In this document: positions 3,001 through 22,621 of the stretch, piece by piece
How the letters are laid out: the number at the start of each line of letters is the position of its first letter
Position numbering within the stretch: position 1 is the stretch's first letter
DNA from: an uncultured Anaerolineales bacterium
GTDB lineage: Bacteria > Chloroflexota > Anaerolineae > Epilineales > JAANWY01
Assembly (NCBI GenBank): GCA_964474265.1
Contig: CAYYSH010000002.1
Location: forward strand, 1-29,736
Direction: 5' to 3'
DNA length: 29,736 nt
Made by a program: the position numbers and the translations under genes
Notes under the pieces: generated by a model
Databases searched by the model: none
What the model saw: only the letters and a program-made list of their open reading frames with translations
Told to the model about the DNA's origin: nothing

Positions 3001-3320
3001 GTTGCCGGCAGGTTCTGCGCGACGTGGACCTGTTGGGGCGGTACGGCGGCGAGGAGTTCGTATTTCTCCTGCCCGAAACTGGCGTCGCCGCTGCTGAGCC
3101 GGTGGCCGAAAGACTGCGCCGGCATGTGGAGCGCTCACTCATGAACACAGATCGCGGCCCGATATCCATCACCATCAGCCTGGGGGTCGCTCAGTTAGAC
3201 GAGACCTGCCCTGACCTGGAGACCCTGCTCGAACATGCCGACCAGGCCCTGTACGTCGCCAAGCGATCAGGGCGGAACCAGGCCCGCGTCTGGCAGGCAA
3301 ATGACCAGGACGTCCCGTAA
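3..3320 (+). CDS. Multi-GAF diguanylate cyclase (at least 6 GAF + GGDEF), 5'-partial
   Basis: The frame is open from base 3 (RDAYRSTSSQPGEV...), so the track's GTG at 42 is internal. Six GAF-ending motifs (e.g. LANQAAIVVEKARL, FANQVAITLENARL, LADQAAIAIRNAQL). C-terminal DSLTGFYNRR, LDLDHFKLVNDTYGHHIGD, RDVD I-site (3018-3029), GGEEF A-site (3045-3059), ADQALYVAKRSGRN. Confidence 0.95.
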   Translation, partial: RDAYRSTSSQPGEVTMTESVLRAGHPLVAEDVFNTPYLSPHIAAQFPARSLLGLPLIADGQKLGAALIAFNQPHQFTPDEIARGEQAARQVALAIAKARALEAERRRADELDALRGIIADILTEHELPKLLRTLLERAVALLNATGGDLGLYDEEAQELVIIVSHNMGKDYAGTRMALGEGAMGQVMQTGKPVLIDDYITWEHRSPQYADGPWHAVMAAPLISGERLIGALGIVDSDPQRRFTPDDLHLLSLLANQAAIVVEKARLLKEAQVRARRQAALVQLSVDLAATLDEEEICHRVVQRLHDTLGYAYQGIFLVDESTGDRVLCAGIGWPDAPADWRIPPGQGVSERAILDGQLHYTPDVTKEPNYVPGLNSGAEVDVPIYASGKVVGVLVVESQEPNAFGPNDFELLEAVANQAGIAMSNARLLQESQRRAEEAETLRRAGAVVAAALEQDEAIQRILEQLELVVPYDSASVQLLREGYVEIVGGRGWADPATVVGLRFPVPGDNPNTVVIQERRPYILNDAPAAHAPFREDPHSHIRSWLGVPLIVGDRVIGMLTVDSKQPGHFTPDHARLVTAFANQVAITLENARLFAEVEQRVMELSIMLETARVVSSTLHLEEVLPIIARQMAQAIGVSGCTLSQWDREADAVVTWIEWRRDWGEYSSEPGTAYSLKEYPATRAVLEKRHPVVIRVSDPEADPAEVALMREQNILTLLMLPLAIGDRVIGLVELDDEVREREFTSDQIRLSQALADHAAIAIENARLFEAERKHSQELEALHEASLRLTSKLELQSVLEAILDYALRLAAATDAHIFLYDGERLSFGAALWANGQEESPYIEPRPEGLTYTVARTGKRIVVDNVNRHPLFKDWPWGGAIAGLPLRIGGQVCGVMNVAFDKPHTFEEDELRVLELLADQAAIAIRNAQLHAEVQALAITDSLTGFYNRRGLFELGRREVERARRFGRPLSALMLDLDHFKLVNDTYGHHIGDQVLAELAACCRQVLRDVDLLGRYGGEEFVFLLPETGVAAAEPVAERLRRHVERSLMNTDRGPISITISLGVAQLDETCPDLETLLEHADQALYVAKRSGRNQARVWQANDQDVP

Positions 3321-3342
3321 ACAGTTCGCCTATGAGGAGAAA

Positions 3343-4971
3343 ATGCAACCTGCAAACCACATGAAACTCGACCAATTGCTGGATTCGCGACAACTGGAAC
3401 AATTTCTGCACGCCCTCGTTGAGCTCGTACCAGTGACCCTGCACGTGGAGGGTTCAAACGGCAAGTTGCTGGCACAGGCGCGGCCAACAGGAGTGAGGAG
3501 CAACACTGCGTCCCCGCCTCTGGAGCACCTGCACAGGACAACCCGGGCAGAGGCACGTGTGCCTGTCGAAATCCACGGCGAGCGAATTGGACAGGTCGTC
3601 GCTGTCGCCGCCGATCCCGAACAGGGCATGGCTCCCCTGGTCGAGTCTGCGGCGCGGCTGGTGGCTCACATTGTGGCCGATCAGGCATACAAAGAGCACG
3701 AACTGAACAGCCTGTCAACCGAACTGCTGGATAAGTACGAAGAGATTACCTTGCTGTACGACCTCAGCCAGGCGTTGGGCTCCATCTTTGACATTTCTGC
3801 CCTGTGCAACATTGCGCTGGAGAAAGCCGCGCAGGCTGTGCCGGCTGCCAAGGGCTTCGTGATGCTCAAAGATAAGGACTCACAGAACCTCACCGTGGTG
3901 GCCGCTCGCGTGGACGGGCTGGTGGGGTGGAAAACGCCGGTTGGTGTGGGCATCAGCGGGCGCGTGGCCGAGTCCGGGAAGCCGATTCTATTGCTGGAGG
4001 GCGAACAGCTTCCCTCGCGCAAGCCGGAAGAGCAGGGGCCGCGCGATGCAGTGCTCTCGGTGCCGCTCGTGTTATCTGCTGCCGAGGATGAGGAAGTGCT
4101 GGGCGTGATCACGCTGGCCGGCAAGCCTCGTGGCGAGATGTTCACAGCCGGCGATGCAAAGCTGCTACGAACAATCGCCACGCAACTGGCTATCGCCATC
4201 CACAACAGCCGGCTGCTCCAGGCCCAGCGGGAAGCCGAGCGCGTGCGGCAAGAGATGGAAATTGCGGCCCGCATCCAGCGCAACCTGTTGCCCAATCGGC
4301 CACCGGACCTGCCAGGCATCGAGGTCGCTGGGCGGTGCCTCCCGGCGACCAACGTGGGGGGCGACTACTACGACTACCTGGTGGACCAGGAAGGCCGGCT
4401 AAACCTGATCATCGCCGACGTCTCCGGCCACAACATCGGCGCAGCCCTGATGATGGTCATGGCCCGCAGCATCCTGCGACGCGAGATCGGCGAGGGGAAA
4501 TCGCCGGCCAGCGTCCTGGCCCGCACCAACACCGCTCTGTTACACGATCTGACCAACGCCGAATTGTTCATCACCATGTTCTGCGCACGCTACGACCCCG
4601 CCACCCGTTGTCTGACCTTCGCCAACGGGGGGCACAATCCGCCGTTGCTGCGGCGCTCAAGCGATGCACAGATCGTGGAACTCGACGGAGATGGTATGAT
4701 CGTGGGCATTCTGGAAGATGTGTCGTTTCAAGAGCAAACTATCACGCTGGAGCCAGGCGACCTCCTGCTCCTGTACACCGACGGTATCGTCGAGGCACGC
4801 AACGCCGAGGGTGAGCAGTTCGGTGATGGCCGGCTGCGAAAACTTCTGATCGATGGCGGTGCATTGCCTCCCGACATGCTGGCGGACCGAATTCACGCGG
4901 CTGTTCGTGAGCACAGTCGAGACAGCGCCCAGCAAGACGATGTTACGCTGCTGATTCTGAAAGTCGAGTGA
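3343..4971 (+). CDS. GAF-containing PP2C/SpoIIE (RsbU-like) serine phosphatase, 542 aa
   Basis: GAGGAG SD at 3334-3339 precedes ATG 3343 (the track start at 3235 overlaps the previous gene). PP2C motifs VGGDYYD, IADVSGH, LLYTDGIVEA and QQDDVTL are all intact. A GAF domain and coiled coil lie upstream. Confidence 0.93.
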   Translation: MQPANHMKLDQLLDSRQLEQFLHALVELVPVTLHVEGSNGKLLAQARPTGVRSNTASPPLEHLHRTTRAEARVPVEIHGERIGQVVAVAADPEQGMAPLVESAARLVAHIVADQAYKEHELNSLSTELLDKYEEITLLYDLSQALGSIFDISALCNIALEKAAQAVPAAKGFVMLKDKDSQNLTVVAARVDGLVGWKTPVGVGISGRVAESGKPILLLEGEQLPSRKPEEQGPRDAVLSVPLVLSAAEDEEVLGVITLAGKPRGEMFTAGDAKLLRTIATQLAIAIHNSRLLQAQREAERVRQEMEIAARIQRNLLPNRPPDLPGIEVAGRCLPATNVGGDYYDYLVDQEGRLNLIIADVSGHNIGAALMMVMARSILRREIGEGKSPASVLARTNTALLHDLTNAELFITMFCARYDPATRCLTFANGGHNPPLLRRSSDAQIVELDGDGMIVGILEDVSFQEQTITLEPGDLLLLYTDGIVEARNAEGEQFGDGRLRKLLIDGGALPPDMLADRIHAAVREHSRDSAQQDDVTLLILKVE

Positions 4972-6952: not shown

Positions 6953-7288
6953 ATGGAGATTCAGGTCGAACGAAACGGAACGGTGGCTGTAGTGGCTGTC
7001 GCCGGCCAGGTAGAGGCAGCAACAGCCCCCCAGCTCAGAGAACAGTTCGATGGCCTGCTCGGTGATGGCGAGCAAAATTTCGTCATCGACCTGTCGGGGG
7101 TGACGTTTATGGACAGTTCCGGCCTGGCCACGTTGGTCCAGCTCTTCAAACGCGTTCGCATTGGCCATGGCGACGTCCGGTTATGCGGCCTGCAACCCGA
7201 AGTGCAACGCATTTTCGAACTGACGCGGCTCGACCGCGTGTTCGATCTCTTCCCGGACCGCGTCGAAGCTGTGGCCAGCTTCCACTGA
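6953..7288 (+). CDS. STAS anti-sigma-factor antagonist (RsbV/SpoIIAA family) #1
   Basis: 111 aa with IDLSGVTFMDSSGL phosphorylation-loop motif. AGGAGG SD. Confidence 0.93.
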   Translation: MEIQVERNGTVAVVAVAGQVEAATAPQLREQFDGLLGDGEQNFVIDLSGVTFMDSSGLATLVQLFKRVRIGHGDVRLCGLQPEVQRIFELTRLDRVFDLFPDRVEAVASFH

Positions 7289-7295
7289 TGCAGCC

Positions 7296-7724
7296 ATGGC
7301 CGAAACGACTCACGAAACTTTAGTTATTCACAGCCGGCTGGCTGCAGTCGCCGAGGCGCGCCGCTGGGCATCTGACCACGTTCGTGCAGCCGGGTTCGAC
7401 AACGACGTAGTTTTCGCCGTGGAACTTGCCCTCAGCGAGGCGCTCACCAACGTCATCGAGCATGCCTATGCCGGAGATGAAACGCAAGAGATCCGCCTGT
7501 CCCTGGCTATCGACGATGAGAAACTACGTCTGACGATCCGGGACTTCGGTCGGAAGTTCGACCTGTCGAGCTACCAGTCACCGAACCTGGATGTGCCAGC
7601 GGAGGGAGGTTATGGCGTGTACCTGATCCACCAACTGATGGATGAGGTTAACTACGACACGTCGCCGGCGCAAGGGACACGGCTCAGCCTGGTTAAGTAT
7701 CGAGTAGGAGGAACTCATGCATGA
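7296..7724 (+). CDS. RsbW/SpoIIAB-type anti-sigma serine kinase (HATPase_c_2)
   Basis: N-box ELALSEALTNVIEHAY, G1 IRDFG, G2 EGGYGVYLIHQLMDEV. Adjacent to a STAS gene. Confidence 0.92.
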   Translation: MAETTHETLVIHSRLAAVAEARRWASDHVRAAGFDNDVVFAVELALSEALTNVIEHAYAGDETQEIRLSLAIDDEKLRLTIRDFGRKFDLSSYQSPNLDVPAEGGYGVYLIHQLMDEVNYDTSPAQGTRLSLVKYRVGGTHA

Positions 7725-9018
7725 CGTCTGCCTGATTCTGGAAGGCACCTATCCATATATCACCGGTGGCGTGTCAGCCTGGGTGCAGGCTCTGCTCGCC
7801 GGCCTGCCCGACCTGGATTTCGCCCTCGTTCATCTGAGCGCTGGTAATGGCCGGAAGCCTCCAAGCCGGTATGCACCGCCGGCCAACCTGACCGAGTTCA
7901 TCGAGTGGCCTCTGGACGTTGGGGAGGTCAGGGTGCGGAGAAGCCAGCAGTTGGTGGGAAGAAGGTGGGATCCTCACCTCACTCCCGCCTCGCTGCCCAA
8001 AGCACGAGTGTACCACGCTCTGTCCACTGGGTTCGCCGGCCTGCTGGGCTGTCAGGTGAAACTGGCCACAGGTCGCCCCCTCATCCTGACGGAGCACGGC
8101 ATCTACTGGCGTGAAGTGCAGGCCGGTGCCGGCGAACTGGAGTGTGGCTTCCGGGTCGTGCCAGATGGGAACGATTGCATCAGCCTGCATGTGGTGCGAA
8201 ATCACTGGACGGTGGCTCTCCAGGAGGCGGCACGCCAGGCCTACGCTCAGGCGGACGTCATCACCACCGTGTGTCGGGCCAATGCCCGACTGCAATTCGC
8301 TCTTGGCGCACCCCCTTCGCGGTGCCAGGTCATCCACAACGGCGTGGATTGGCCGGCACTGGCGCCCAACGGCGCTCGCTCGCCGGCCACCGACGGCATC
8401 TACCGCATCGGCTTCGTCGGTCGAGTCGTGTCAATCAAAGACGTTGCCACATTCCTCAAGGCATGCCAGTTGGTGGCCGGCGAGCTGCCCACCGCCCACT
8501 TCTACGTCATCGGGCCACTGGATCACGATCCGCCCTACGCGGCCTATTGCCAGAGCCTGGCCGCCGGGCTGGGCCTGGAAGACCGCGTGACCTTCACGGG
8601 CGAAACCGATCCTGTGCCCTGGTACCGCCGGCTGGATGTTGTCGCGTTGACGAGTGTCAGCGAAGGACAGCCGCTGGCCCTGTTGGAGGCGATGGCTGCC
8701 GGCGTGCCGGTCGTCGCCACGGCCGTAGGCGGGTGCCCGGAGCTGATCCTGGGAGCCACGCCGCAGGACCGAGACCTGGGGCCGGCCGGGCTCCTGACGC
8801 CGGTCCGTGATCCCCAGGCCACGGCCCATGCCATTTTGGCGCTATGCCATGATGTGGACCGGTGGCGCCGGGCATCGTGGGCCGGCCAGCATCGGGTGCG
8901 CCAGTTCTACTCGATCGAGCATCTATGTCAGGCCTATCGAGCTCTGTACCTTGGCATGCTCGGACGGACCAATGTCGAACCTGCGTACGCGCAAAGTGTT
9001 AACGGGAGAGTGCTATGA
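7717..9018 (+). CDS. pelF: PelF-like GT4 glycosyltransferase (DUF3492-type N-terminus) #1
   Basis: DVCLILEGTYPYITGGVSAW, LILTEHGIYWRE, VIHNGVD, FVGRVVSIKD and the E-x7-E motif SEGQPLALLE are all PelF hallmarks. Confidence 0.85.
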   Translation: MHDVCLILEGTYPYITGGVSAWVQALLAGLPDLDFALVHLSAGNGRKPPSRYAPPANLTEFIEWPLDVGEVRVRRSQQLVGRRWDPHLTPASLPKARVYHALSTGFAGLLGCQVKLATGRPLILTEHGIYWREVQAGAGELECGFRVVPDGNDCISLHVVRNHWTVALQEAARQAYAQADVITTVCRANARLQFALGAPPSRCQVIHNGVDWPALAPNGARSPATDGIYRIGFVGRVVSIKDVATFLKACQLVAGELPTAHFYVIGPLDHDPPYAAYCQSLAAGLGLEDRVTFTGETDPVPWYRRLDVVALTSVSEGQPLALLEAMAAGVPVVATAVGGCPELILGATPQDRDLGPAGLLTPVRDPQATAHAILALCHDVDRWRRASWAGQHRVRQFYSIEHLCQAYRALYLGMLGRTNVEPAYAQSVNGRVL

Positions 9019-9728
9019 GGATTGGAATACTTCACCAATACAGCCTGCTTAGCTCCGGTAGCGGGGTGTACACAGTGCACGTGACTCAGCGATTGCTGCG
9101 GCGCGGCCACCAGGTATGCCTTGTGTGCCGGGATTTCGAGTTGGATCGCCATATCTTTATCGACGAAGCCTTCATCCACGAAGGGCAGCACACGCAACGG
9201 GTGTTTCGGCGTCGTCGCGAGCCGGCGTGCAGTGCTCACGCGCTACACAGCAAGGTTATGCCTGTGGCCTATCCGCGTGCGGAGACGCCCAATGGCCGGC
9301 TGTTCACGGACCTGACCGACGAGGAGATTCGCGAGTACGTGGCGTATCACGTGGATCGGGTCGCCTACATTGCCCGCCGGCACCGCCTGCAGGTACTCCA
9401 CGCCAACCACGTCGTGCTCATGCCTTACATCGCACTGCAGGTGAAGCGCCAGTTGGGCCTGCCCTACGTGGTAACTGTCCATGGCAGCACGATTGAGTTC
9501 GTGGTGAACCAGGATGAGCGTTATCGGCAGCACGCTGTGGCCGGCCTGCGCGGCGCAGATCGAGTGATTGCGCTAAACCCGGAAGTGCGGGACCGTGTCC
9601 TCCAGATCTGTCCCGACCTTGGAGGCCGGCTGACCAGCATTTCGGTCGGCGTGGACACAAGAGTGTTTCGACCGGTGTACGTGAGACCGCTGGAGGTCAC
9701 CAGCCATGTCGTATCAGCATACGGGTAG
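9015..9728 (+). CDS. GT4 glycosyltransferase, N-terminal Rossmann half
   Basis: SGSGVYTVHVTQRLLRRGHQV, LHANH, PYVVTVHGS, ADRVIA, VGVDTRVFRP, then a stop. ATGA overlap with the pelF stop. Confidence 0.85.
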   Translation: MRIGILHQYSLLSSGSGVYTVHVTQRLLRRGHQVCLVCRDFELDRHIFIDEAFIHEGQHTQRVFRRRREPACSAHALHSKVMPVAYPRAETPNGRLFTDLTDEEIREYVAYHVDRVAYIARRHRLQVLHANHVVLMPYIALQVKRQLGLPYVVTVHGSTIEFVVNQDERYRQHAVAGLRGADRVIALNPEVRDRVLQICPDLGGRLTSISVGVDTRVFRPVYVRPLEVTSHVVSAYG

Positions 9729-10599
9729 GCAGCCGTCTGTCTATCGCACTCCATCCTTCTCCGGCAACGGCAGTACGCCTGCGTCGGCAGGTCCCCCCGG
9801 AGGGGGATTGACCAGGGGAGGCCGGCGGGGGACACGAACCGTGGCCTTCGTCGGCAAGCTCTCGCTGGAGAAGGGCGTGCACTGCCTGATCGCAGCATTG
9901 CCGGCCATTGTGGCCGCGTTTCCTGACGCGCATTTGCTGCTCATCGGTGACGGGGTAGCCAGAGGCTCCCTGGAGAGGATGTTGCTTGCGCTGGATCGCG
10001 GGGACCTGCATGCGGCCACTCAGGCCCTGGCGGAAGCGCCAACCACCGCCCAGGAAGAAGCGTGGATTACGCCTGTGACCCTGTTTTGGGAACATGTGGA
10101 CCGGGTCACATACCAGGCGGCGGCCCGCGCAGCCGACCTGGTCAGCCATGTGACTTTCACTGGCTATCTGCCGCATACGGAGATTGCCGGCATCTTGCCA
10201 GACGCCGACCTGTTGGTGATCCCGTCTCTGGTCAAAGAGGCCTTCCCGCTGGTATCTCTGGAGGCTCTGGCGTGCGGGGTGCCGCCGGCCGGCCCGTATC
10301 GCGGCGGACTCATCCCAATCCTGGACGAAATCGCGGCCGCGCTTGGCCCGGTGGCTGATCTAATCCGGCTTGACCCACACCCCGAAGCGTTCGTAGCAGA
10401 TTTAGCCCACAAGGTGCCAGAGCTGTTGGAATACCTCTCCTGGCCGGACATTCGAGAAGATGTGGCCCGGCAATGTTGGGCGATCGCAGCGGGTAAGTAC
10501 GACTGGGACCGCGTTGTGGATCGGGTAGAAAGCGTGTATCGCGACGTGTTGTCCCAAGCACGTCCGGCTGATCGAAGAACACACCTGCCCAGTTCGTAG
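9706..10599 (+). CDS. GT4 glycosyltransferase, C-terminal nucleotide-sugar-binding half
   Basis: VAFVGKLSLEKGVHCLIAA, VTFTGYLP, E-x7-E motif PSLVKEAFPLVSLEALACG, YDWDRVVDRVESVY. GGAGGT SD at 9692-9697. Confidence 0.85.
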   Translation: MSYQHTGRQPSVYRTPSFSGNGSTPASAGPPGGGLTRGGRRGTRTVAFVGKLSLEKGVHCLIAALPAIVAAFPDAHLLLIGDGVARGSLERMLLALDRGDLHAATQALAEAPTTAQEEAWITPVTLFWEHVDRVTYQAAARAADLVSHVTFTGYLPHTEIAGILPDADLLVIPSLVKEAFPLVSLEALACGVPPAGPYRGGLIPILDEIAAALGPVADLIRLDPHPEAFVADLAHKVPELLEYLSWPDIREDVARQCWAIAAGKYDWDRVVDRVESVYRDVLSQARPADRRTHLPSS

Positions 10600-11525: not shown

Positions 11526-11570
11526 AGGCCAGCCCAGCAGGTCTCAAGAAACGCAGATGGAGGCGACGTG

Positions 11571-13850
11571 ATGGGCGGATTCAGGCGGGCTCTTCAGAGT
11601 CTGGCGCAGCGGCTGGTGGATGGTTGGTCCAGCCTGCGCGGCCGGGTTCTGGCCGGCCTGGAGGCCACGGCAAGGGTAGCACGCTCGTTCCTCATGCTTG
11701 CAACTGAGGCCGGCTTCTGGCTTGCCCGGCAAATCTGGCAGGCCAGAAGCCGGCGTCAGGCGCACAACCAAGCCGTATCAGCCAGAACCTGGCTCCTGCG
11801 CCTTTTGCAGGCGGTGCTCTTTATGCCGCTACTTCTGGTTGCATACCGGGTCATGACCCAGGAGCCGGCCTTGCCCCAGGCTCCGGCTTACGCCAGCGCC
11901 CGCCAGCAGCGCATCCTGGTAGTGCACAACACGGCAGACAGCTATGGGGAGCAGGCCTACGCTAACGCGCTCCGCGCCCTGGACTATGCCCGGTTAAATT
12001 ACGAGAGTCTCGACCTCGCCAACTTTGAAGGGTGGCCAGATCTGGAGCAATACAGCTCACTGCTCTTCGTCACCGAGATGTTGGACGGCATCGACGAAGC
12101 CCAGTCTCAGCAAATTGCCGACTATGTGGCCGGCGGTGGCGGACTGGCTGTTGTTTATCGTGGCTGGAATCCCTACCTGGCGTCTCTCTTCGGGATGAAG
12201 GCCGGCGCGGAGTACCCTGAGTTGATCGAAGGTGAGGGAGGGCTGAACTTTCAAGCGGATCTTTTCCCTGGAGTCAAGGGGCTCGTTCTGAGCGAAAAGA
12301 CCATCCCCGACCTCTCGGCATTCGATGTAAGCCTGCAGCGAGAGGCTCAGGTCCTGGCCAGTTCCGGTTCAGGCCGGCCCATCGTCTGGCTCTACCGTCA
12401 CGGCCAGGGCCGGGTGATTTACTGGAACACGGTTTTCCTGACGGAGAAAGAAGCGCGCGGCTTCATCGTCCAGTCGGTGCTGGGCGCCCAGGGGGTGGGG
12501 GTGTTGCCCATTGCCAACTTTGCCACCTTCCAGATAGACGATTTCCCGGCCTCGATCTCCACCAAGAAACTCGAGCCCCTGGCAACTGAATATGACCTGA
12601 CTCTGGTCGAGTTCTACCACAAGGTCTGGTTCCCAGACATGATGGAGATCGCTCACCGTTACGGGTTAGTATACACCTTTCTGATTCCTTTCAACTACAA
12701 CGATCGGGTTGAGCCCCCATTTGGATTTCGCGAATGGGAGCATGCGAGTGTGCAGGAAGACAACCAGCCTGTCTTCTACTCCATCTACGTCTCTCATCTG
12801 GCTGCTCAGCAGCACGAGCTGGGCCTCCATGGCTATAACCATATCTCGCTCACCCTGGAAAACTGGCCCAGCGAGGAGAACATGGTGCTGGCGTTGCAGG
12901 AGGCTTCCAGGCGCTGGGATGCGGATAACCTGGGACCCCAGCCGGTCACTTACGTGCCGCCGAACAACATTTTCGATGAGGCCGGCGCGCGAGCCTTGAC
13001 CAGGAGCTTTCCATCGTTGAGAATCCTGGCGAGTATCTACACGGGGCGCTTTGAGAAAGGTGGCAATCGGGAATTCGAGCCAGAGCCCTGGAACCCGAAA
13101 CTATTCGACATCCCACGACTGACTGACGGGTATCATTTGGATCCGTACATGCGGTATGTCATGATTTCCGAACTCGGCATGATGGGTATCTGGACGCACT
13201 TTATTCACCCCGATGACGTTGTCCATACGCCGGCCAACTACCCCGATGCCCCGTATCATCGCAACCCGAATTACTGGCCCTGGCGCGGAGACAACACCGG
13301 CGAGAGAAACGGGTTCTACTATCGCCTTCTACACTGGCTGGACTTCGCCAAGACGTTCTATCCATGGTTGCGCTATATCCGCACCGCCGACTCACTTGAT
13401 ATTCTGCGCTCGCATCTGGAGAACCAGGTGTCAGTTGAACTCAAGCCCTTTGAGGTGATCTTGCACACAACCACCCCAACGTACTTCCAGGTACGCATCA
13501 ATGACAGGCGACGCCTCTTCTTCAACGACATGTCGGGTGCCCAATTTGTCCATGCATATTATGGGGAAGGATATACTCTCTACACCTTGCGCGGCCTGAA
13601 GAAGGAAGTTCGTCTGAGCTTGATCATTCCAGCATCTGAACCAGGCACGACTCCGGGCGCACAGCCCGGCAACCTGTTCGCGCCCGTTGGAGACCATGAG
13701 GAGCTAGGGCCAAAGGACCTGCAAGACGAAACGCTCTGGCAGCCGGCGAGTGTCCCGGGATCAGCATCTGAGACCCCGCCGGCCTCTGCCCCCCCTCCGC
13801 GCATGGATGCCCTGCCGGTGAGCACACCGACGCTTCGGAGGCGACCGTGA
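11571..13850 (+). CDS. DUF2194-type / PelA(DA)-like membrane-anchored polysaccharide deacetylase (CE4-like)
   Basis: One hydrophobic segment (LLRLLQAVLFMPLLLVAY), then an alpha/beta domain. CE4-like motifs FQIDDFP, HELGLHGYNH, YVPPNN, THFIHPDD. Pro-rich tail. GGAGG SD at 11559-11563 favours ATG 11571. Confidence 0.75.
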   Translation: MGGFRRALQSLAQRLVDGWSSLRGRVLAGLEATARVARSFLMLATEAGFWLARQIWQARSRRQAHNQAVSARTWLLRLLQAVLFMPLLLVAYRVMTQEPALPQAPAYASARQQRILVVHNTADSYGEQAYANALRALDYARLNYESLDLANFEGWPDLEQYSSLLFVTEMLDGIDEAQSQQIADYVAGGGGLAVVYRGWNPYLASLFGMKAGAEYPELIEGEGGLNFQADLFPGVKGLVLSEKTIPDLSAFDVSLQREAQVLASSGSGRPIVWLYRHGQGRVIYWNTVFLTEKEARGFIVQSVLGAQGVGVLPIANFATFQIDDFPASISTKKLEPLATEYDLTLVEFYHKVWFPDMMEIAHRYGLVYTFLIPFNYNDRVEPPFGFREWEHASVQEDNQPVFYSIYVSHLAAQQHELGLHGYNHISLTLENWPSEENMVLALQEASRRWDADNLGPQPVTYVPPNNIFDEAGARALTRSFPSLRILASIYTGRFEKGGNREFEPEPWNPKLFDIPRLTDGYHLDPYMRYVMISELGMMGIWTHFIHPDDVVHTPANYPDAPYHRNPNYWPWRGDNTGERNGFYYRLLHWLDFAKTFYPWLRYIRTADSLDILRSHLENQVSVELKPFEVILHTTTPTYFQVRINDRRRLFFNDMSGAQFVHAYYGEGYTLYTLRGLKKEVRLSLIIPASEPGTTPGAQPGNLFAPVGDHEELGPKDLQDETLWQPASVPGSASETPPASAPPPRMDALPVSTPTLRRRP

Positions 13851-13865
13851 CCTGCGAGATCGACG

Positions 13866-15863
13866 ATGAAGTATCACACCCAGGCGCTGATAGCTATCTC
13901 GAAGCTTGTGGGCTGGTTCGTGGTGCTGTTCGTCTGGCTCCCGCGTTGGCTTTTCCCACGCCCGGCAGTACCCGGGAGCGGCGCGCGGTTTTTCGCCAAC
14001 CTGGCCCGCATGGTTCTGGCAACAGCAATCATCATACAGGGGCTGGTACTGTTGCACCTGTTCGACTTCTTCTCCCTGGTGGCCAGCTACCTGGTGCTGG
14101 GAGCCGGGATTGCCAGCCTGCGTCGGGGCCGGCTGCCCATCGCCGAGCTGGATCAGGCCGTCACGCAGTTGGAGGCAACGATCATCGACATGCTGGAGGG
14201 GAACTTCCCTTACCACACGTGGCTCAACCGGGCGGGGCAGCGGTTTCAACGCTGGGTTCTTACCTGGCAGCCAGACAGAGACACCATTGCCTGGGGGATG
14301 GTGTTGGGCATGGTGTTGCTTATCAGCGCCGGCCTCCGGCTGGCTGGTGTGCCGACCAGGGCTGCGCCCGGCGACCCGGGCACCTACCTGCACATGGCCT
14401 GGACCCGCTTACTGGCCAGCAACACCATCTGGCCCAACGGTGCCTATCCGTTGGGTGCCCACAGTTGGATCCAGACCATCGCACAGTTCGCCCGGGTGGA
14501 CGAAGCGCTGCTCGTTCGAACGGCAGGGGGGCTGGTGGGGCTCCTGCTGACGCTAGCGGTCTACGTATCCGTTCGCTGGGCCGGCGCCGGACAGGGAGCG
14601 GCGGTGGTGGCGACAGCCACGTATGGCATGTTCATTTTCGCGGGTGTGCTGCCCGCCGGCGCATCTCGCCAACAAGAGTTGCATCCGTTCGAATTCGGGC
14701 TCGTGTTCTTGCTACCATCGTTGATGTTCATCTCCGAATCCCTGGACTCCTTTCAATGGCCACTCTTCCTGCTGGCCGGCGAATGCCTGGCGGCCGCCTC
14801 TGTCCTGCACCCGGTGGCCGGCCTGTTCGGGCTGCTCGGATTGGTGGCGGTGTTGGCAGTTCAAGCAGTGAGCGGGCGCAGAGCGTTCCGCTGGATCGGG
14901 TGGGCTGTGGCTGCCGGCGGCCTCGCCACCTTACTCGGCAATTTGTTCTTGCTGGTGGCACGTCTGATGGGCCGGCCCCGCCACCAGGGCGTGCTGGACA
15001 TCGTCGTCACCTTCTTTGCGCCCGGGCGGCCGGACCCGGCGTGGCAATCGCTGGTGTGGGGGTTGGCAGCACTGGGAGCTGGTCTGCTGTTGTCGCCACC
15101 CCATCACCGGGCGCTGTTTCGACGGAGTACCGGGCTCTTCCTGGGATTGCTGGTGGCCCTCTTCATGGGGTATCCGGCCCTTCTGGCTCCCGACAAGGTG
15201 GGAATTCCGCTGTCTCTGGTGGCCGCCGTGGGGCTGGGGGTGGAGTTGGACATTGTGCTGACGGCGCTTCGGCAGCTCATTGGCCGGCTGGGAATGCCGC
15301 GCCTGCACCCGTCTATCGGATTGACGGCCGGCCTGGTCGCCCTCGCCATTGCCGGCGTGACCGTGATATCACCGCCGCTGCAGGCGGACCCTGGTCCGCC
15401 CCAGGAGCCGGAGTCCCTGGCGCGGGCTCTCTACCAGATCAAAACCGATCATCTGGCCTATACCTGGACTGTGGTTGGATACCCGGAGGCATTGCCACAG
15501 GTGCTGGGGCGCGGCTATTTCCTGTCGTGGAAGGATTTCCTGGCGAAGTACGATCCGGTCGCGTATCGTTTCGATCCGCGAGATCCGGATCTGGCGATCC
15601 CAACTCGCTACGTGTTTATCATGGTTGAAAAGCAGGTGTTCGTCGGTCCCAACGATCTGGCCGCAGATACATTGGAAAGAGCCAAACTACAGGTGGCTCT
15701 CCAGGACTGGGTCGCGCGCTATCAACAGTACCACGACGATATGAGCATTTACTACGAGGATAGTTCAGTTGCTGTCTACCAGATTTATCGGTCGCCGGAG
15801 ATTGAGCGACAGATCATTGAAGAATACGAGGCGGAACAGTTCCAGCGGAGGAAACAGCGATGA
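13866..15863 (+). CDS. Multi-pass integral membrane protein (possibly GT-C/PMT-like), function unknown
   Basis: 665 aa with many hydrophobic segments, an early loop GDPGTYLH...YPLGAH and a soluble C-terminal domain. Lies between the deacetylase and the HD protein. Confidence 0.8.
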   Translation: MKYHTQALIAISKLVGWFVVLFVWLPRWLFPRPAVPGSGARFFANLARMVLATAIIIQGLVLLHLFDFFSLVASYLVLGAGIASLRRGRLPIAELDQAVTQLEATIIDMLEGNFPYHTWLNRAGQRFQRWVLTWQPDRDTIAWGMVLGMVLLISAGLRLAGVPTRAAPGDPGTYLHMAWTRLLASNTIWPNGAYPLGAHSWIQTIAQFARVDEALLVRTAGGLVGLLLTLAVYVSVRWAGAGQGAAVVATATYGMFIFAGVLPAGASRQQELHPFEFGLVFLLPSLMFISESLDSFQWPLFLLAGECLAAASVLHPVAGLFGLLGLVAVLAVQAVSGRRAFRWIGWAVAAGGLATLLGNLFLLVARLMGRPRHQGVLDIVVTFFAPGRPDPAWQSLVWGLAALGAGLLLSPPHHRALFRRSTGLFLGLLVALFMGYPALLAPDKVGIPLSLVAAVGLGVELDIVLTALRQLIGRLGMPRLHPSIGLTAGLVALAIAGVTVISPPLQADPGPPQEPESLARALYQIKTDHLAYTWTVVGYPEALPQVLGRGYFLSWKDFLAKYDPVAYRFDPRDPDLAIPTRYVFIMVEKQVFVGPNDLAADTLERAKLQVALQDWVARYQQYHDDMSIYYEDSSVAVYQIYRSPEIERQIIEEYEAEQFQRRKQR

Positions 15864-17731
15864 CAATGTCCAACGAGGCTCGACCGGGCTTTGCCTTCGG
15901 ACGACCGCCGGCCCCCGACTGGTCTGACTTCTTCGGGGCATTGGCAGAACACACCGACTACCAGGCACGGCTGGATGCGCTGCTGGAACTGACGGCCAGG
16001 GCCACCAAGCTGCCTGTGGTTGCCCTCTACCTGGCGGACAGCCCCGAAAGCCGGCCCCACCTGGTGCGCCTCCGCTTCCCCAAGCCGGCGCGAGCCACCT
16101 CGGCCGGTGCTGAAACGGGCTCCCGCGTCCCATTCCTGGGCGGTTCTCTGGGTCGCTGGAGACGTGAGACGTTGGACGCCGAGACTTTCGATGTGGACGA
16201 AGCCTTTTACTCCGACAGCGTCGTGTCCGTCAGCTCAGGAGTGCCCCTTGATTTGCCACGTGACGAGAGGTATACGACTTCATCCATTGTTGCGACCCCT
16301 GTCGGCGCGCTCTATTCTGTGCCGCTACACCGCCGGGGAGAGCAAATCGGGGTTGTGCAGGTCGGGCCTGTGTCTGAGCAGCCCGGCCGCCGGCTACGCA
16401 AGGCAATGGAGTCGATCGCTAGCCCGCTGGCCCACGCTGTTGCTCTGGCCCGTGAGCAGAGCCGGCTACAGGAGCAACTCGCGGAGTATGAGACCCGCGC
16501 CGATGTCAGCCGACAGATGCTGCGCTCCGCCTTCGAGCTGGACGAGTTTCTGCATCTGCTGCTCGAACTGGCGGTGAAGGCGAGCGGAACCCAGGCCGGC
16601 TTCATCGCGCTCGCCGACACTTCCGGGGCGATCCGGCTGCACACGGCTGTGGACCTGCCCGACGGACTGCTCGATGGCGTGGATCTCACCCCCGGTGCCG
16701 GCTTTCTGGAGTGGCTGGACGAGGCAGAGCGGGCCCTCTACGTCGCCGACTTTGCACGGGCAGCCGAACTCGGGATTCAGGTGATTCTGGCCGTTCCCCT
16801 GGCAGATGAAGAGCGCGTGCTGGGCGTGTTGGGTTTGATGAATCTGGAGGGAGGCCGGCCACCGGCTGAGCACAGCCTGAACCTGCTGGCCATCTTTGCC
16901 GAGCAGATTCAGTTGGTGTTGGGCAACGTGCGGCTGTTTGAGGCTTTTAACCGGCAGTTTGTGGACACCATTCACGCCCTGGCTCGGGCGCTGGATGCCC
17001 GCTACCCCTACAGCGAGGGCCACCACCGACGCGTCACCGACTGGGCCATGACCATCGGTCACGAGTTGGGGTTGAGTGAGGGCCAGTTGGAGGCTCTGTG
17101 GGTGGCCGGCATGGGACACGACGTGGGCATGTGCGGGATCGTGGAGGTCGAACACGGCTTCCAGGCCGACTTCCATCACCCTACCATCGGCGCTTCCATG
17201 TTCGACGTGCTCCCCAATGGCCAGGCCGCCAGCGAAATCGTGGCCACACATCATGAGTGGTTCGACGGCTGGGGCTTCCCGGCCGGCCTGAAAGGGGAGG
17301 AGATCCCAGTCGGCGGTCGAATCCTGGCGCTGGCAGAGTACATCGTAGAGAGCACGACGGCCGACTCCATCCAGACGGCCATGCCACCGTCGAAACTTTT
17401 CGAGGAGATCGAGATCCGGCGGGGCCGGCAGTTCGATCCAGCAGTGGTAGATGCCTGGCGTGCGGCCTTCGAGCGACAGCGCCGGGCGTCAGCGTTGGGC
17501 ACTCCATTTCGCCCCTGCCACACGTTCAAGGGTGAGCCCGAAGCCGCCTGTACCACCTGTCCGGCTCGCACGGTGGCCGCACCCTGCTGGACAATCCCGG
17601 ACGTGCGCTGCATTTACCACGGAGACCCAGATTGCAGGGGGTGTTTTGTCTATCTGGAAGCAGTTGAGCGAGCGACAGATGCGGGCACAGACGTGCCGGC
17701 GCCAGCCCCGCGGGGCGTAGAAGAGGTCTAG
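15860..17731 (+). CDS. GAF-GAF-HD-GYP-like (degenerate) protein with Cys-rich C-terminal motif
   Basis: Two GAF-like regions. EGHHRRV, GHDVG, HHPTIG, HHEWFDGWGFPAGLKGEEIP, QFDPAVV. ATGA overlap with the upstream stop. Confidence 0.85.
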   Translation: MTMSNEARPGFAFGRPPAPDWSDFFGALAEHTDYQARLDALLELTARATKLPVVALYLADSPESRPHLVRLRFPKPARATSAGAETGSRVPFLGGSLGRWRRETLDAETFDVDEAFYSDSVVSVSSGVPLDLPRDERYTTSSIVATPVGALYSVPLHRRGEQIGVVQVGPVSEQPGRRLRKAMESIASPLAHAVALAREQSRLQEQLAEYETRADVSRQMLRSAFELDEFLHLLLELAVKASGTQAGFIALADTSGAIRLHTAVDLPDGLLDGVDLTPGAGFLEWLDEAERALYVADFARAAELGIQVILAVPLADEERVLGVLGLMNLEGGRPPAEHSLNLLAIFAEQIQLVLGNVRLFEAFNRQFVDTIHALARALDARYPYSEGHHRRVTDWAMTIGHELGLSEGQLEALWVAGMGHDVGMCGIVEVEHGFQADFHHPTIGASMFDVLPNGQAASEIVATHHEWFDGWGFPAGLKGEEIPVGGRILALAEYIVESTTADSIQTAMPPSKLFEEIEIRRGRQFDPAVVDAWRAAFERQRRASALGTPFRPCHTFKGEPEAACTTCPARTVAAPCWTIPDVRCIYHGDPDCRGCFVYLEAVERATDAGTDVPAPAPRGVEEV

Positions 17732-17829: not shown

Positions 17830-18171
17830 ATGGAATATCAGATTCACACGGACGGTTCGATTAACATTGTAGAACTGGCCGGCGACCTGGACGTGAGCGG
17901 TGCGCCGGCCCTGCAAGAGGCCCTGCAACAGATCATCGACAACGGCGGGCAACAGGTCGTGGTAAACCTGGGAGAGGTTCCTTTCATGGATAGCTCCGGT
18001 TTGGGCGTACTTGTGGCCGCGTACCGCCGGATGGCGGCTGTTGGCGGCCAGATCGCCCTGGCCAGCCCGCGGCCGACTTTGCAGAAGGTCTTCAAGCTCA
18101 CGCGCACCGACCGACTGTTTAAGACATTCGATCAGGTCAATGACGCCGTCGCACACATGCGAGACATGTGA
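17830..18171 (+). CDS. STAS anti-sigma-factor antagonist (RsbV/SpoIIAA family) #2
   Basis: 113 aa with VNLGEVPFMDSSGL motif. AGGAGGT SD. Confidence 0.92.
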   Translation: MEYQIHTDGSINIVELAGDLDVSGAPALQEALQQIIDNGGQQVVVNLGEVPFMDSSGLGVLVAAYRRMAAVGGQIALASPRPTLQKVFKLTRTDRLFKTFDQVNDAVAHMRDM

Positions 18172-18954: not shown

Positions 18955-20832
18955 ATGAGAGAGCGCATCTCCGTTCTCTTCGAGACAGAAGGCACCTACC
19001 CATTTGTTGGAGGGGGTGTTTCGACCTGGTGCAAAATCCTGGTGGAGGAATTGCCACAGATTGACTACCTCATTTTTGCCGTGACGGGGACCCCGCAGGT
19101 CAGGACCAAGTACCCGATTGATGACAAGGAGAACATCAAGCGGGTCATCCAGGTGCCGATGTGGGGGGCGGAAGAGCCGGCGGAGTGGATTCTGCCGTTT
19201 CGCGCGCCACCGCACATCCCTTTCTCCGAGCTTTTCTTGCGCAAAAAGGCAACCACAGAAGAGGTCATTCGCGAGAAATTCGTCCCCCTCTTCCGGCACT
19301 TCCTGCGCGGCTTCGAAGAGCCTGGCTCGGACGTGCTGGTGTATGGTCCCACCGTGTGGGCGATCTTCCGCTACTTTCAAGAGTACGATTACAACCTGAC
19401 CTTCAAATCCCGGCCTGTGTGGGAGGCATTCAAGGACGAGATGCTCCGCCCCTACCGAGAACACCCGGACCGTTTCCTGCCGAATGAATATCCGAACCTC
19501 TTCGACCTGACCACCTGCCTGCGTTGGTTATACAACATGCTCATGGCTTTCACTGCTCCGGTGCCAGAGACGGACGTCAGCCACGCGACCATTGCCGCTG
19601 CCTGCGGGCTGGCCAGCATCTACGCCAAATTCGAGTACGGTACCCCGTTTATCATCACTGACCATGGCGTGTACGCTCGCGAGCGCTACATCGCTGTCTC
19701 AGCCACCGATTTCACCTTCTTTTCTAAGCGGTTTCTGATCAACCTGGCTACCTTCGTGTCCAAGCTCAACTACGTCTACGCCGATCAACTGTCGCCGTGT
19801 GCCAACTTCAACCAACGTTGGGAGATACCGTTTGGCGGTGACCCAAGGCGGGTTGCCACAATTTACAACGGCGTCAATCCTGACGTATTCGTCCCCGGGC
19901 CGAAGCCAGAGGAATTCAGGAACTATCCCACCTGTGTCGCAGCGGCGCGCATCTTCCCGCTGAAGGATCTGATAACGATGATAAAGGGGGTGGCAGTAGC
20001 ACACAAAAGCATTCCTAACTTGAAGGTGATCGTCCACGGATCGCTGAAAGCAGATCCACCTTACGTGAAAAAGTGTCGCGATCTTGTCCGAGAACTGGGG
20101 CTGGGCCCCGGGACGGGTGATGAAACTGGTGACGATGGGGCTGAAGATATCGAAAGCTGGACTTTTCGCTTCGGTGGCTTTCACAATCAGCCCTCCAAGA
20201 TCTTCACCATCGGCGACATCAGCCTGCTCTCCAGCATCTCAGAAGGATTTCCCTTCACAGTGCTGGAAAGCATGTCATGCGGCACTCCGGTAGTGGGGAC
20301 AGACGTGGGGGGCGTTAAGGAGGCGCTGGAAGGTCACGGGGTGGTTGTACCGCCCCGCGACCCTGAAGCGTTTGGGGCCGGCATCGTTAAACTGTTGACT
20401 GACCACGATCTGCGCCAGCGGCTTTCCCGCAAGTGTCGGGAGACCATCCTGGCCAAGTTCACCACCTCCACTTCCGTGGACGGGTACCGGGAGAGCTACG
20501 AGAAATGGGCCGCGTACAAGCACGAGCACCTGGACGACATTCGCGCAGAGAATGCCAAAATCATCGCAGCCTGGGAAAGGGAAATCGAGGCCATTCGGCA
20601 GGAAGCGCCGGCCACCTCCCCAGACGACGATGCAGCGCTACTCCGGTCGAGCCCTGCGCCTGAAGGGCGACACACGATTCCGCCGTGGCGCGTGCTCCGT
20701 GAGTGGCACGGCATGCTTTGGCACCGTTTCCGCAACGGCGATGTGCGCGGGAACCACCGCGATCGCCACAACGGCAGCCTGGCAGCGCCCGACGTTGAAC
20801 ACAGCCGGCGGGGAGAGGGACATGACGGCTGA
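18955..20832 (+). CDS. pelF: PelF-like GT4 glycosyltransferase (DUF3492-type N-terminus) #2
   Basis: ETEGTYPFVGGGVSTWC, IITDHGVYARER, TIYNGV, ARIFPLKD and E-x7-E motif SISEGFPFTVLESM. Long C-terminal tail. Confidence 0.85.
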   Translation: MRERISVLFETEGTYPFVGGGVSTWCKILVEELPQIDYLIFAVTGTPQVRTKYPIDDKENIKRVIQVPMWGAEEPAEWILPFRAPPHIPFSELFLRKKATTEEVIREKFVPLFRHFLRGFEEPGSDVLVYGPTVWAIFRYFQEYDYNLTFKSRPVWEAFKDEMLRPYREHPDRFLPNEYPNLFDLTTCLRWLYNMLMAFTAPVPETDVSHATIAAACGLASIYAKFEYGTPFIITDHGVYARERYIAVSATDFTFFSKRFLINLATFVSKLNYVYADQLSPCANFNQRWEIPFGGDPRRVATIYNGVNPDVFVPGPKPEEFRNYPTCVAAARIFPLKDLITMIKGVAVAHKSIPNLKVIVHGSLKADPPYVKKCRDLVRELGLGPGTGDETGDDGAEDIESWTFRFGGFHNQPSKIFTIGDISLLSSISEGFPFTVLESMSCGTPVVGTDVGGVKEALEGHGVVVPPRDPEAFGAGIVKLLTDHDLRQRLSRKCRETILAKFTTSTSVDGYRESYEKWAAYKHEHLDDIRAENAKIIAAWEREIEAIRQEAPATSPDDDAALLRSSPAPEGRHTIPPWRVLREWHGMLWHRFRNGDVRGNHRDRHNGSLAAPDVEHSRRGEGHDG

Positions 20833-22621
20833 GCTTCTGGCAGAGCCGCGGACAGCGGGTGTTCAAGAAGTACCAGTGGATGAAGGACAAGCTGCTGGCG
20901 CTGTGGCGGAGGCCGGCGGGCCTCTGGGGGGCTTCGAGCCCCCGGCAGACCCGGCGTTCACCCCTGACCCGGAAATCCTCGACCCAGATCCACTAGCGGC
21001 GGATAAGGAAGAACTGGTGGACTTCATCCTGGAAACCTGCGGCAGCCCAGTCGATTTCTGGGCCGTAGCAGCAACGCTGGAAAGTCGGGGAATGCGCGAC
21101 GTAGATGCCGAAGAGAAGTTCGGCATCCAACCCCTGGTGCGGTGGGTTGAGCCCAAGTCGGGGTACGTGGTCAAGGGATCCATTATGGTCCTGGCCAAGG
21201 ACATTTATGCCCGCTGTCGGAAGCGCCTGGAGAGTCAGCCTCAGGAGGAAACCCGTGAACCTGAACTGGCCTGGTGGCATAAAATGGCGCGGTTCATCAA
21301 GTTTTACCTGCAGGGCACTCTCTTCGCCCTCCCCATGACCGGGCAGATTATCTCCGTTCTGGCCCTGCGCTACTCCCTCTGGGCCTTTCTCGAATTCACC
21401 GAGGAACGAGCGACGGTGGTTGCCATCGGGACTGTCATGAGCTTCATCGTCACCGGAGGATTCGTACAGGCCATCGGTCGCAAGGGCATGTCCTATTCGG
21501 AGGCAGGGAGCCATATTCTGGCCAAAGAGGTCTGTTATGGGCTGATTAAGCTGGGCACCGGCCTGGTCCTCGCGGTGGCGCTGGCTTTTTACCTGCTGAA
21601 CCTGATTATCCCCTTCTTCACGCAGGAGATGGTCTGGATCAGCCTGATGTACTTCGTGCTGCTGTCAGAGTTGTGGCTGTTCATTTCGATCCTGTATGTG
21701 CTGACGCAGCGTGCAGCCATCCTGTTGAGCACACTGGCCGGCGTGGGTATCGTGCACGTAGTGATGACCTACACCAACTGGGGCATTCACGCCGCTCACG
21801 GGTTGGGCCTGCTGGGCACCAACCTGATTGTTGGGCTCTACGGCTACCACCTGCTGGACAAGGCAGCCAAATCCGTCACAGGTGATCTGAAGGATGCACG
21901 ACTGCCGGCCTGGTCCATCCTGTACTACTCCTTACGACTCTACTTCCTTTATGGCATGTTCTACTTCGGCTATCTCTACCTGGATCGGCTCGTGGGATGG
22001 TCCGCTTCTGAGCAACCGCTGCCGTATATCATATGGTTCCGCACGCCGTATGAGTTGGGGATGGACTGGGCATTGATTTCGCTCATCTTTAGCATCGCGC
22101 TGCTTGAGTACACCATCAACGAGTTTGCCTCGATCATCATTCCGACCCAGAAGCGATTCAGCGCATTTGACATTGAAGGGCACAATCGGTATTTCACCCG
22201 CTTTTATGTGCGGCAACTCATTCTGCTAATCCTCATTGCTATCGCCAGCATCATCGCAACTTACCATGCGGTCACCTGGCTGCGGCGTTTCGAGGAAATC
22301 AAGCTGGTGCGGGACTTCTTCAAGAGCCCGATCACTTTCTTCGTCTACTGGACCGCCGCTGTGGGCTACAACCTGATGGTGATAGGGCTTTTCAATGGCG
22401 TTTTCTTCTTCTCGCTGTCGCGCCCGGTTCCGGTGCTGCGAGCGATTGTGCCGGCCACGGTGGTTAATGCCCTTGTCGGCTACGTGCTCAGTCGGACGAT
22501 CGGCTACCAGTATAGCGCAGTCGGCATGACCATCGGATCACTGGTCTTTGCGCTCCTGGCCACCCGAAACGCGCTACGCATGATGAGCAATCTGGATTAC
22601 TTCTACTACTCGGCGTATTAG
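20822..22621 (+). CDS. PelG-like polysaccharide exporter (multi-TM) with ~160-aa N-terminal soluble extension, 599 aa
   Basis: GGAGAGGG SD upstream of ATG 20822 (the track start at 20552 overlaps pelF#2 by 281 nt). About 12 hydrophobic segments and an aromatic C-terminus LDYFYYSAY. Directly follows a pelF-like gene. The PelG assignment rests on context and topology. Confidence 0.6.
   Translation: MTAELLAEPRTAGVQEVPVDEGQAAGAVAEAGGPLGGFEPPADPAFTPDPEILDPDPLAADKEELVDFILETCGSPVDFWAVAATLESRGMRDVDAEEKFGIQPLVRWVEPKSGYVVKGSIMVLAKDIYARCRKRLESQPQEETREPELAWWHKMARFIKFYLQGTLFALPMTGQIISVLALRYSLWAFLEFTEERATVVAIGTVMSFIVTGGFVQAIGRKGMSYSEAGSHILAKEVCYGLIKLGTGLVLAVALAFYLLNLIIPFFTQEMVWISLMYFVLLSELWLFISILYVLTQRAAILLSTLAGVGIVHVVMTYTNWGIHAAHGLGLLGTNLIVGLYGYHLLDKAAKSVTGDLKDARLPAWSILYYSLRLYFLYGMFYFGYLYLDRLVGWSASEQPLPYIIWFRTPYELGMDWALISLIFSIALLEYTINEFASIIIPTQKRFSAFDIEGHNRYFTRFYVRQLILLILIAIASIIATYHAVTWLRRFEEIKLVRDFFKSPITFFVYWTAAVGYNLMVIGLFNGVFFFSLSRPVPVLRAIVPATVVNALVGYVLSRTIGYQYSAVGMTIGSLVFALLATRNALRMMSNLDYFYYSAY

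Follow-up and report, generated by a model that had tools for sequence, protein, structure and literature searches.

What does an HD-GYP-type protein that has lost several hallmark motifs of its family do in the middle of a Pel-type polysaccharide cluster, and what does such a cluster use for control when no PelD can be found in it? These questions are raised by contig CAYYSH010000002.1 of assembly GCA_964474265.1, from an uncultured Anaerolineales bacterium. The whole contig of 29,736 nt was analyzed and is referred to here as the window; it belongs to a metagenome-assembled genome (MAG) of 2.57 Mb in 287 contigs that is 75% complete. The gene in question lies at 15860..17731 on the forward strand, as do the other window features given below in the form start..end, and encodes a 623 amino acid (aa) product with the layout GAF-GAF-HD(GYP-like)-Cys, per the open reading frame (ORF) list, its translation, Pfam matches and orthologues. 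We propose, with a probability of about 0.5, that this protein, hereafter the HD protein, is a signal-integrating partner in a STAS-based switch that gates a PelD-less Pel-type synthase, and that it is not a canonical cyclic di-GMP (c-di-GMP) phosphodiesterase.

Gene and Domain Architecture

The reading frame of the HD gene is intact, with an ATG at 15860 and a stop at 17731. An earlier note on this DNA, made from the letters alone, had ended the gene at 17470, which cuts off an 88 aa Cys-rich tail at the end of the HD domain. The ATG shares the sequence ATGA with the stop codon of an upstream gene for a 665 aa membrane protein, and a GGAGG is placed 9 nt 5' of it.

The HD-GYP-fold domain occupies residues 374-529 (16979..17446) and matches Pfam HD_5 at 7.7e-23, with 81.5 bits against a cut-off of 27.2 over profile positions 3-170 of 170; alignments to the Persephonella marina protein PmGH, to paralogues and to the rest of the family agree with this assignment to the HD-GYP fold, a helical HD-superfamily fold extended by two C-terminal helices. 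It is preceded by GAF-B at residues 226-352 (16535..16915; Pfam GAF_2 3.6e-15, GAF 1.3e-12) and by the divergent GAF-A at residues 33-196 (15956..16447), which carries a disordered insert at about residues 77-125. GAF-A is weak in Pfam, reaching 23.8 bits against a cut-off of 22.4 for PF01590 with the N-terminal 225 residues scanned alone, and is also found by AlphaFold2 (AF2) and Foldseek. The AF2 model of the HD protein, for which the input was 82 homologues, has a mean predicted local distance difference test (pLDDT) score of 83, and Foldseek searches with it retrieved PmGH (4mcw, 8e-16), PA4781, DvhD, V-cGAP3 and Bd1817, as well as the tandem-GAF regulatory segments of PDE2A, PDE5 and PDE6. 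Since the Pfam domains and the AF2/Foldseek matches agree, the layout GAF-GAF-HD(GYP fold) is confirmed.

Neither Pfam nor the AF2 model gives the HD protein a transmembrane (TM) region or a GGDEF or PelD_GGDEF match. The possibility that it is itself a PelD is ruled out by the lack of a TM region and of a GGDEF domain.

HD-Domain Motifs Compared to Canonical HD-GYP Proteins

To read the motifs of the HD domain, we aligned it to PmGH 4mcw with HMMER and to the five canonical HD-GYP paralogues of the same genome with MAFFT. These five are the other HD_5 proteins of the genome, at 127-147 bits each, and PmGH is the best sequence match of the HD protein (3.7e-19). All seven dimetal ligands are retained (H388, H420, D421, H440, H464, H465 and E493), the final one being Glu493 and not Asp, a Glu that is fixed family-wide, and the HHE motif is retained as H464/H465/E466. 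The motifs around this site are changed. HDxGK reads HDVGM, with M424 equivalent to PmGH K225; the following loop is exactly 9 aa shorter than in the paralogues, and the KPG motif falls in the deletion; GYP reads GFP within HHEWFDGWGFP, the motif backbone being kept and the family having F or Y at this position; AxxDxxDA reads ALAEYIVE, which replaces PmGH D305 by E493 and D308 by V496; and SDRPYR reads TADSIQ, with RxY[K/R] gone. The earlier note had read the same pattern, namely H, HD, H and HHE kept, Met for the Lys after HDxG, a loop about 9 aa shorter, GFP for GYP, ALAEYIV for AVADxFD and DSIQ for RPYR, and both sets of alignments bear it out. Two further replacements had escaped it, PmGH D183 by Tyr382 and E185, the third-metal Glu, by Tyr384.

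Mutating D183, K225 or D308 to Ala in PmGH abolishes activity, as do mutations of the metal ligands (PMC4159591), and the corresponding residues of the HD protein are Y382, M424 and V496. KPG contacts guanine 2 of c-di-GMP, and RxY[K/R] contacts guanine 1 and gives specificity for c-di-GMP (Galperin and Chou, 10.1101/2021.11.05.467447); the HD protein has neither of these two motifs that mark a c-di-GMP-specific phosphodiesterase. With the equivalents of D183, K225 and D308 lost along with KPG and RxY[K/R], the HD protein probably does not act as a canonical c-di-GMP phosphodiesterase.

A Conserved Multi-Phylum Clade

A protein search of 5.8 billion sequences gave 207 matches at E <= 1e-5, and the best 120 of the 207 were analyzed. 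Among these, full-length orthologues are 60-78% identical to the HD protein and a second tier is 35-45% identical; the closest orthologues among the matches listed come from Anaerolineae and Caldilineae MAGs. The elements HDVG[ML][CA]G, a 32-34-residue loop, HHEW[FY]DGWG[FY]P and LAxAE[FY]xxE are fixed in the approximately 120 homologues, and RxY[K/R] is absent throughout. In an 82-sequence alignment of the family, the HD pocket is the site where invariant and near-invariant columns cluster, these conserved columns being R381, H388, H420, D421, D437, H440, P441, H464, H465, E466 and W467, followed by D469-G472, P474, E493, E497 and R520. In a maximum-likelihood tree of 207 HD domains, comprising the HD family, other HD-GYP proteins with a Cys tail and the five paralogues, the HD family forms one clade with 96-98% support in the Shimodaira-Hasegawa-like approximate likelihood ratio test (SH-aLRT), apart from the canonical paralogues.

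The family also reaches well beyond the Chloroflexota. We scanned one genome from each GTDB species for the pattern EW[FY]DGWG[FY], which occurs in 50 species that represent five phyla or more, namely in Chloroflexota, in Actinomycetota (Solirubrobacterales, Conexibacter, Gaiellaceae and Acidimicrobiales), in Bacteroidota/Kryptonia/Ignavibacteria, Calditrichota and KSB1, and in single Desulfobacterales and Acidobacteriota genomes. To judge from these alignments and the tree, the HD protein is a member of a distinct, conserved HD-GYP clade that has kept the metal site and discarded the c-di-GMP contacts. The word "degenerate", which the earlier note had used of it, does not fit substitutions that are invariant across a multi-phylum clade and surround the best conserved pocket. 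As such, the altered motifs point to a changed function rather than to decay. The same note's suggestion of a weak or inactive phosphodiesterase stands insofar as canonical c-di-GMP hydrolysis is unlikely with three essential residues lost; the part that does not stand is the implied decay, the function appearing changed instead.

The STAS Partner and the Partner Switch

Downstream of the HD gene, at 17830..18171, lies a gene for a STAS protein (STAS#2; Pfam STAS 9.6e-23) of the phosphorylatable anti-sigma-antagonist type, with the motif FMDSSG. We counted such linkage in 50 species loci, each from a different species, 49 of which could be evaluated. In 37 of the 49, a STAS gene begins 0-198 nt 3' of the HD gene or overlaps its stop, and in a further 11 the STAS domain is fused in frame at the C-terminus of the HD protein, giving the order GAF-GAF-HD-Cys module-STAS; a STAS thus adjoins or is fused to the HD protein in 48/49 loci. 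The phosphorylation motif F-x-D-S-S-G is kept in these STAS proteins whether fused or free, with DSS invariant. The conserved partner of the HD protein is therefore a STAS protein, and the linkage or fusion in 48/49 loci assigns the HD protein to a partner switch, not to the synthase as a direct subunit. A role as the synthase's regulatory subunit, as the earlier note had suggested, is right in so far as the protein is regulatory and linked to a synthase cluster, and is displaced in that its conserved partner is the STAS within the switch.

The other parts of such a switch are encoded in the window as well: a second STAS paralogue associated with the kinase (STAS#1, 6953..7288; Pfam), an RsbW-like Ser kinase (HATPase_c_2; 7296..7724; Pfam 5.5e-32) whose gene overlaps the start of the first PelF gene, and a GAF-PP2C (SpoIIE) phosphatase (3235..4971; Pfam 5.1e-58). 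STAS#2 groups with the HD-adjacent STAS proteins of other loci and STAS#1 with the kinase-adjacent ones, including the second STAS of the related loci L002 and L004. Among the loci of at least 14 kb (n=32), PelF is present in 31, the kinase in 29, GAF-PP2C in 28 and a PelG-like gene in 27, and the PP2C, a phospho-Ser STAS and the HATPase_c_2 kinase occur together in most of them. The gene order is common to Chloroflexota, Actinomycetota, Bacteroidota and Kryptonia contexts. It consists of GAF-PP2C (SpoIIE), sometimes then a receiver domain, the HD protein, one or two STAS proteins and the HATPase_c_2 kinase, together with PelF, a second PelF, the PelG-like protein, a protein of about 600-680 aa and a DUF2194 protein; in two of the displayed loci, L005 and L006, a GH114 hydrolase lies beside DUF2194. 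In contrast to these recurring members, GGDEF genes are near only 4/50 related loci and chemotaxis genes near almost none. The kinase gene directly precedes or overlaps PelF in 32/33 loci, a position that suggests PelF itself as the target of the kinase.

In a Conexibacter locus, the phosphatase (gene 7429-9876) is an 815 aa GGDEF-HD_5-REC-SpoIIE fusion, which unites c-di-GMP-making and c-di-GMP-breaking domains with PP2C.

The Pel-Type Cluster and the Question of PelD

The genes around the switch amount to a Pel cluster with two PelF proteins, a PelG-like protein and a PelA-like DUF2194 protein. PelF#1 (DUF3492 + GT4; 7717..9018) and PelF#2 (18955..20832) reach 328 and 127 bits, respectively, against the NCBIfam PelF cut-off of 100. 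The DUF2194 protein (11568..13850; PF09960 4e-82) has a domain known from Gram-positive-type PelA (PMC7890745). The PelG-like membrane protein, whose listed ORF of 689 aa spans 20552..22621, gives no direct match to the Pfam PelG model and is recognized by its 48% identity, from residue 117 on, to the L004 protein, which has a weak PF16933 match. The listed ORF overlaps PelF#2 by about 280 nt, and the true start of the gene is probably well downstream of 20552, since similarity to the orthologue begins only at residue 117.

No gene of this cluster was recognized as pelD. The window, in which the earlier note had seen no PelD gene, has no match to PelD_GGDEF (PF16963), and the genome-wide search that the note called for likewise found none in the 75%-complete genome, nor was there one in the five displayed related contexts. 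Five other genomes with the HD family gave no match either, a weak negative given that no positive control was matched. The PelD/PelE pair went undetected in the window and the five related contexts, with limited sensitivity to divergent PelD and PelE; genome incompleteness and the known divergence of monoderm PelD limit these negatives. On our best reading, the locus is a monoderm-type Pel cluster without PelD. The 665 aa polytopic membrane protein (13866..15863), which is translationally coupled to the HD gene through the ATGA overlap, is a candidate to take the place of the absent PelD/PelE membrane components. It has no Pfam or NCBIfam match, is conserved in 15/50 related loci and is 33% identical to an L004 protein.

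The operon starts with a gene, open at its 5' end, for a 6xGAF-GGDEF diguanylate cyclase (3..3320), in which Pfam and a motif scan show GGEEF to be intact and an RxxD I-site to be spaced much as in PleD. On these motifs the operon probably makes c-di-GMP; no recognized c-di-GMP receptor is encoded near the cyclase.

Two further features of the window were observed. A GT4 glycosyltransferase is split into an N-domain gene (9015-9728) and a C-domain gene (9706-10599). As the cluster of a 61%-identical relative, L002, shows the same split (14482-15192 and 15490-16200, 236 + 236 aa), this looks like a conserved split and not a frameshift. A GAF-PAS-HisKA protein (5381-6484) has no HATPase domain by Pfam, and stand-alone receiver genes lie on both sides of it.

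The Cys-Rich Module

The tail of the HD protein contains a Cys-rich module at residues 549-606 (17504..17677) with 7 Cys, delimited by the family alignment and modeled at a pLDDT of 84-96. Five Cys and one His are invariant across the family in the arrangement C-x22-C-x7-C-x2-H-x4-C-x2-C; the module is a candidate Fe-S or Zn site. No Pfam or NCBIfam model matches it, and neither a literature search on "two-CW domain" nor an ESM Atlas feature search with the tail gave a usable match. A profile search of 1.84 billion cluster representatives retrieved 117 clusters, nearly all with the module C-terminal in proteins of approximately 570-650 aa. By motif scan, nearly all carriers are HD-GYP-type proteins, many of which keep HHERxDGxGYP and RxYR. 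Because nearly all of the 117 clusters have the module C-terminal to HD-GYP-type domains, it is, as far as these profiles reach, a specific accessory of such domains.

A large group of carriers without the HD dyad still has HHERxDGxGYP and RxYR, and its module has the consensus CWEMxCxPxxIC..CPAY..CWE..C..HG..C.TCFVYTE.

Proposed Function and Alternative Explanations

On the basis of the domain layout, the lost catalytic and binding residues, the metal ligands, the clade conservation and the linkage and fusion with STAS, we propose that the HD protein, the phosphorylatable STAS, the GAF-PP2C phosphatase and the RsbW-like kinase would form a partner switch without a sigma factor. Acting as the sensor, the HD protein would bring together signals from inside the cell, for instance a small ligand, a metal or the redox state, through its tandem GAF domains, dimetal center and Cys/His module, and these signals would set, by way of physical contact between the HD protein and the STAS beside it or fused to it, whether that STAS can engage the kinase. 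The kinase would in turn hold or modify PelF, its fixed position before pelF making it the likely direct handle on the synthase, and polysaccharide synthesis could thereby be under post-translational control without PelD. Ordinary c-di-GMP turnover appears to be independent of the HD gene, given the five canonical HD-GYP paralogues and the GGDEF/HD_5 phosphatase of Conexibacter. The retained dimetal site and the high conservation of the pocket speak for a specific role that the pocket still has; the pocket could dock or hydrolyze the phospho-Ser of the STAS, or respond to metal, redox or gas state. In its widest form, the proposal would be that PelD-less Pel-type synthases across at least five phyla are gated by a partner switch in which a repurposed HD-GYP dimetal domain reads or controls the STAS, this domain having a Cys/His metal module and no longer recognizing c-di-GMP canonically. 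This joint claim we offer as speculation that is rather unlikely to hold as it stands.

Several observations weigh against the proposal that the HD protein is a non-canonical partner in a STAS switch. In locus L014 (8787-17482), no STAS is found within 8.7 kb downstream of the HD gene. The HD orthologue there is 71% identical and the upstream gene order matches that of the window, and the operon appears to end or to be rearranged after the HD gene; a STAS-sized ORF downstream was rejected as a STAS, having no similarity to STAS#2. When a natural GAF-GAF-HD-Cys-STAS fusion was modeled with AF2, the individual domains were confident but the predicted template modeling score (pTM) was 0.58, and we claim no interface from it. 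The R314A, K317A and Y285A mutations barely lower the in vitro activity of PmGH (PMC4159591), and as a result the loss of RPY alone is no proof of inactivity, and HDxGM is also found, by regex motif scan, in relatives whose motifs are otherwise canonical. The 50 species that carry the family pattern are all uncultured, and their genomes are nearly all MAGs, with a few candidatus assemblies. Finally, the full dimetal set and the most conserved pocket are no less compatible with an active enzyme than with a sensor, and the family-invariant Trp467, Trp471 and Arg520 could form a non-canonical nucleotide site.

These last points lead to the main alternative, a serious one that is possible even if we lean against it, in which the HD protein would be an active metal-dependent phosphodiesterase with an altered substrate, turned on or off by the phosphorylation state of the STAS that adjoins it or is fused to it. 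Its substrate might be c-di-GMP bound in a new pose, pGpG, cGAMP, another nucleotide or the phospho-STAS, and the system would mirror SiaC-SiaD and HsbA-HsbD on the degrading side. An active enzyme of this kind would explain why seven dimetal ligands are kept in the most conserved pocket, along with the invariant W467, W471, E497, D437 and R520. The cyclase with intact GGEEF and I-site that opens the operon would suit it too, as would GGDEF genes near 4/50 loci and the fact that STAS proteins are known regulators of c-di-GMP enzymes. The PmGH-essential D183, K225 and D308, however, are Y, M and V here, and the KPG and RxY[K/R] guanine contacts are gone; moreover, the GGDEF linkage is sporadic, five canonical HD-GYP proteins are already present in the genome, and, were phospho-STAS the substrate, most loci already have a PP2C phosphatase for it.

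We consider it improbable that the HD protein instead replaces PelD, serving without catalysis as a c-di-GMP receptor that would take up the messenger from the operon's own cyclase and switch on the PelF/PelG-like synthase directly. In favor of this, searches of the window, the genome and five relatives turned up no PelD, the HD gene is embedded among synthase genes with a cyclase in the operon, and HD-GYP domains can act as c-di-GMP receptors, as in DvhD of Desulfovibrio vulgaris. The PelD negatives are weak, however, the genome being 75% complete and the control unmatched; the HD protein lacks a membrane anchor; and its invariant neighbor is STAS, not PelF or PelG. DvhD itself, a PAS-HD-GYP c-di-GMP receptor (9RBZ/9RC0), shares with our proposal an HD-GYP fold that regulates a biofilm function rather than bulk turnover, but its KPG, GYP and RxYR are intact and its HD and HH metal ligands gone, a pattern opposite to that of the HD family. 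As for the missing canonical motifs reflecting a decaying, functionless HD-GYP remnant, this is scarcely credible for an intact 623 aa ORF with full-length orthologues 60-78% identical, the same substitutions fixed across phyla and both the variant pocket and the synteny conserved. That the gene is a pseudogene is ruled out by the clade-wide conservation.

Comparison to Known Systems

PmGH (4MCW/4MDZ), a GAF-HD-GYP c-di-GMP phosphodiesterase, has in common with the HD protein the order of GAF then HD-GYP, the H..HD..H..HH..acidic metal set and the HHExxDGxG.P loop. In contrast, the HD protein has a second GAF domain, a Cys-rich C-terminal module and a STAS neighbor, lacks the KPG loop and RxxK, and has Tyr for E185 and Glu for D305. 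PelD, the c-di-GMP receptor of Pel synthases, composed of an N-terminal DUF4118 region with 4 TM segments, a GAF domain and a degenerate GGDEF domain with an I-site, is likewise a GAF-containing regulator inside a pel-type cluster, but the HD protein has no membrane domain, GGDEF or I-site and no homology to it beyond the GAF fold.

For the switch, the closest parallels in gene content are SiaABCD and HptB-HsbR-HsbA-HsbD of Pseudomonas aeruginosa and BgrSTUWV-BgrR of Sinorhizobium meliloti, which, as here, combine PP2C, a Ser kinase and STAS or STAS-like proteins without a sigma factor. SiaC-SiaD, HsbA-HsbD and BgrV-BgrR are partner switches regulating diguanylate cyclases, in the case of Bgr for a beta-glucan exopolysaccharide. 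Their partner is thus a diguanylate cyclase, whereas here it is a protein of the HD-GYP clade without the canonical c-di-GMP residues; the STAS fusion of some lineages and the kinase gene abutting that of the PelF glycosyltransferase are also particular to the present loci. Control of polysaccharide synthesis at the post-translational level by STAS phosphorylation is known from HenR/All4160/Alr3423 of Anabaena PCC 7120 and from SypE/SypA of Vibrio fischeri. Neither of these systems has an HD domain or Pel-type genes, and the STAS of All4160 is joined to a glycosyltransferase, the protein that it regulates, instead of a GAF-HD protein. The fused HD relatives further resemble RsbR-type stressosome proteins, which have an N-terminal sensor and a C-terminal STAS. 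In the fused relatives, too, a large sensory region comes before a phosphorylatable STAS, which has an RsbT/RsbW-type kinase to work with. Their sensor is GAF-GAF-HD-Cys and not globin-like, and the STAS of the window is a separate gene. Our literature searches returned no account of a partner switch built on an HD-GYP-clade protein, nor of a Pel-linked module of this kind.

Significance

Pel is among the most widespread biofilm polysaccharides, and its known control point is the binding of c-di-GMP to PelD. How regulation works where PelD variants cannot bind c-di-GMP or where there is no such receptor is a question that reviews of Gram-positive pel clusters have not settled (PMC7890745). The type of locus described here suggests a testable answer, in which PP2C, kinase and STAS form a switch and a variant HD-GYP protein is its constant fourth member. 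Additionally, the analysis flags an uncatalogued Cys/His module as a specific companion of HD-GYP-type domains. A clade that keeps the metal center and discards the c-di-GMP contacts, the reverse of DvhD, widens the possible roles of the fold. If a repurposed dimetal domain does act on the STAS, the HD-GYP fold would gain a new kind of output, and exopolysaccharide synthesis a new form of post-translational control.

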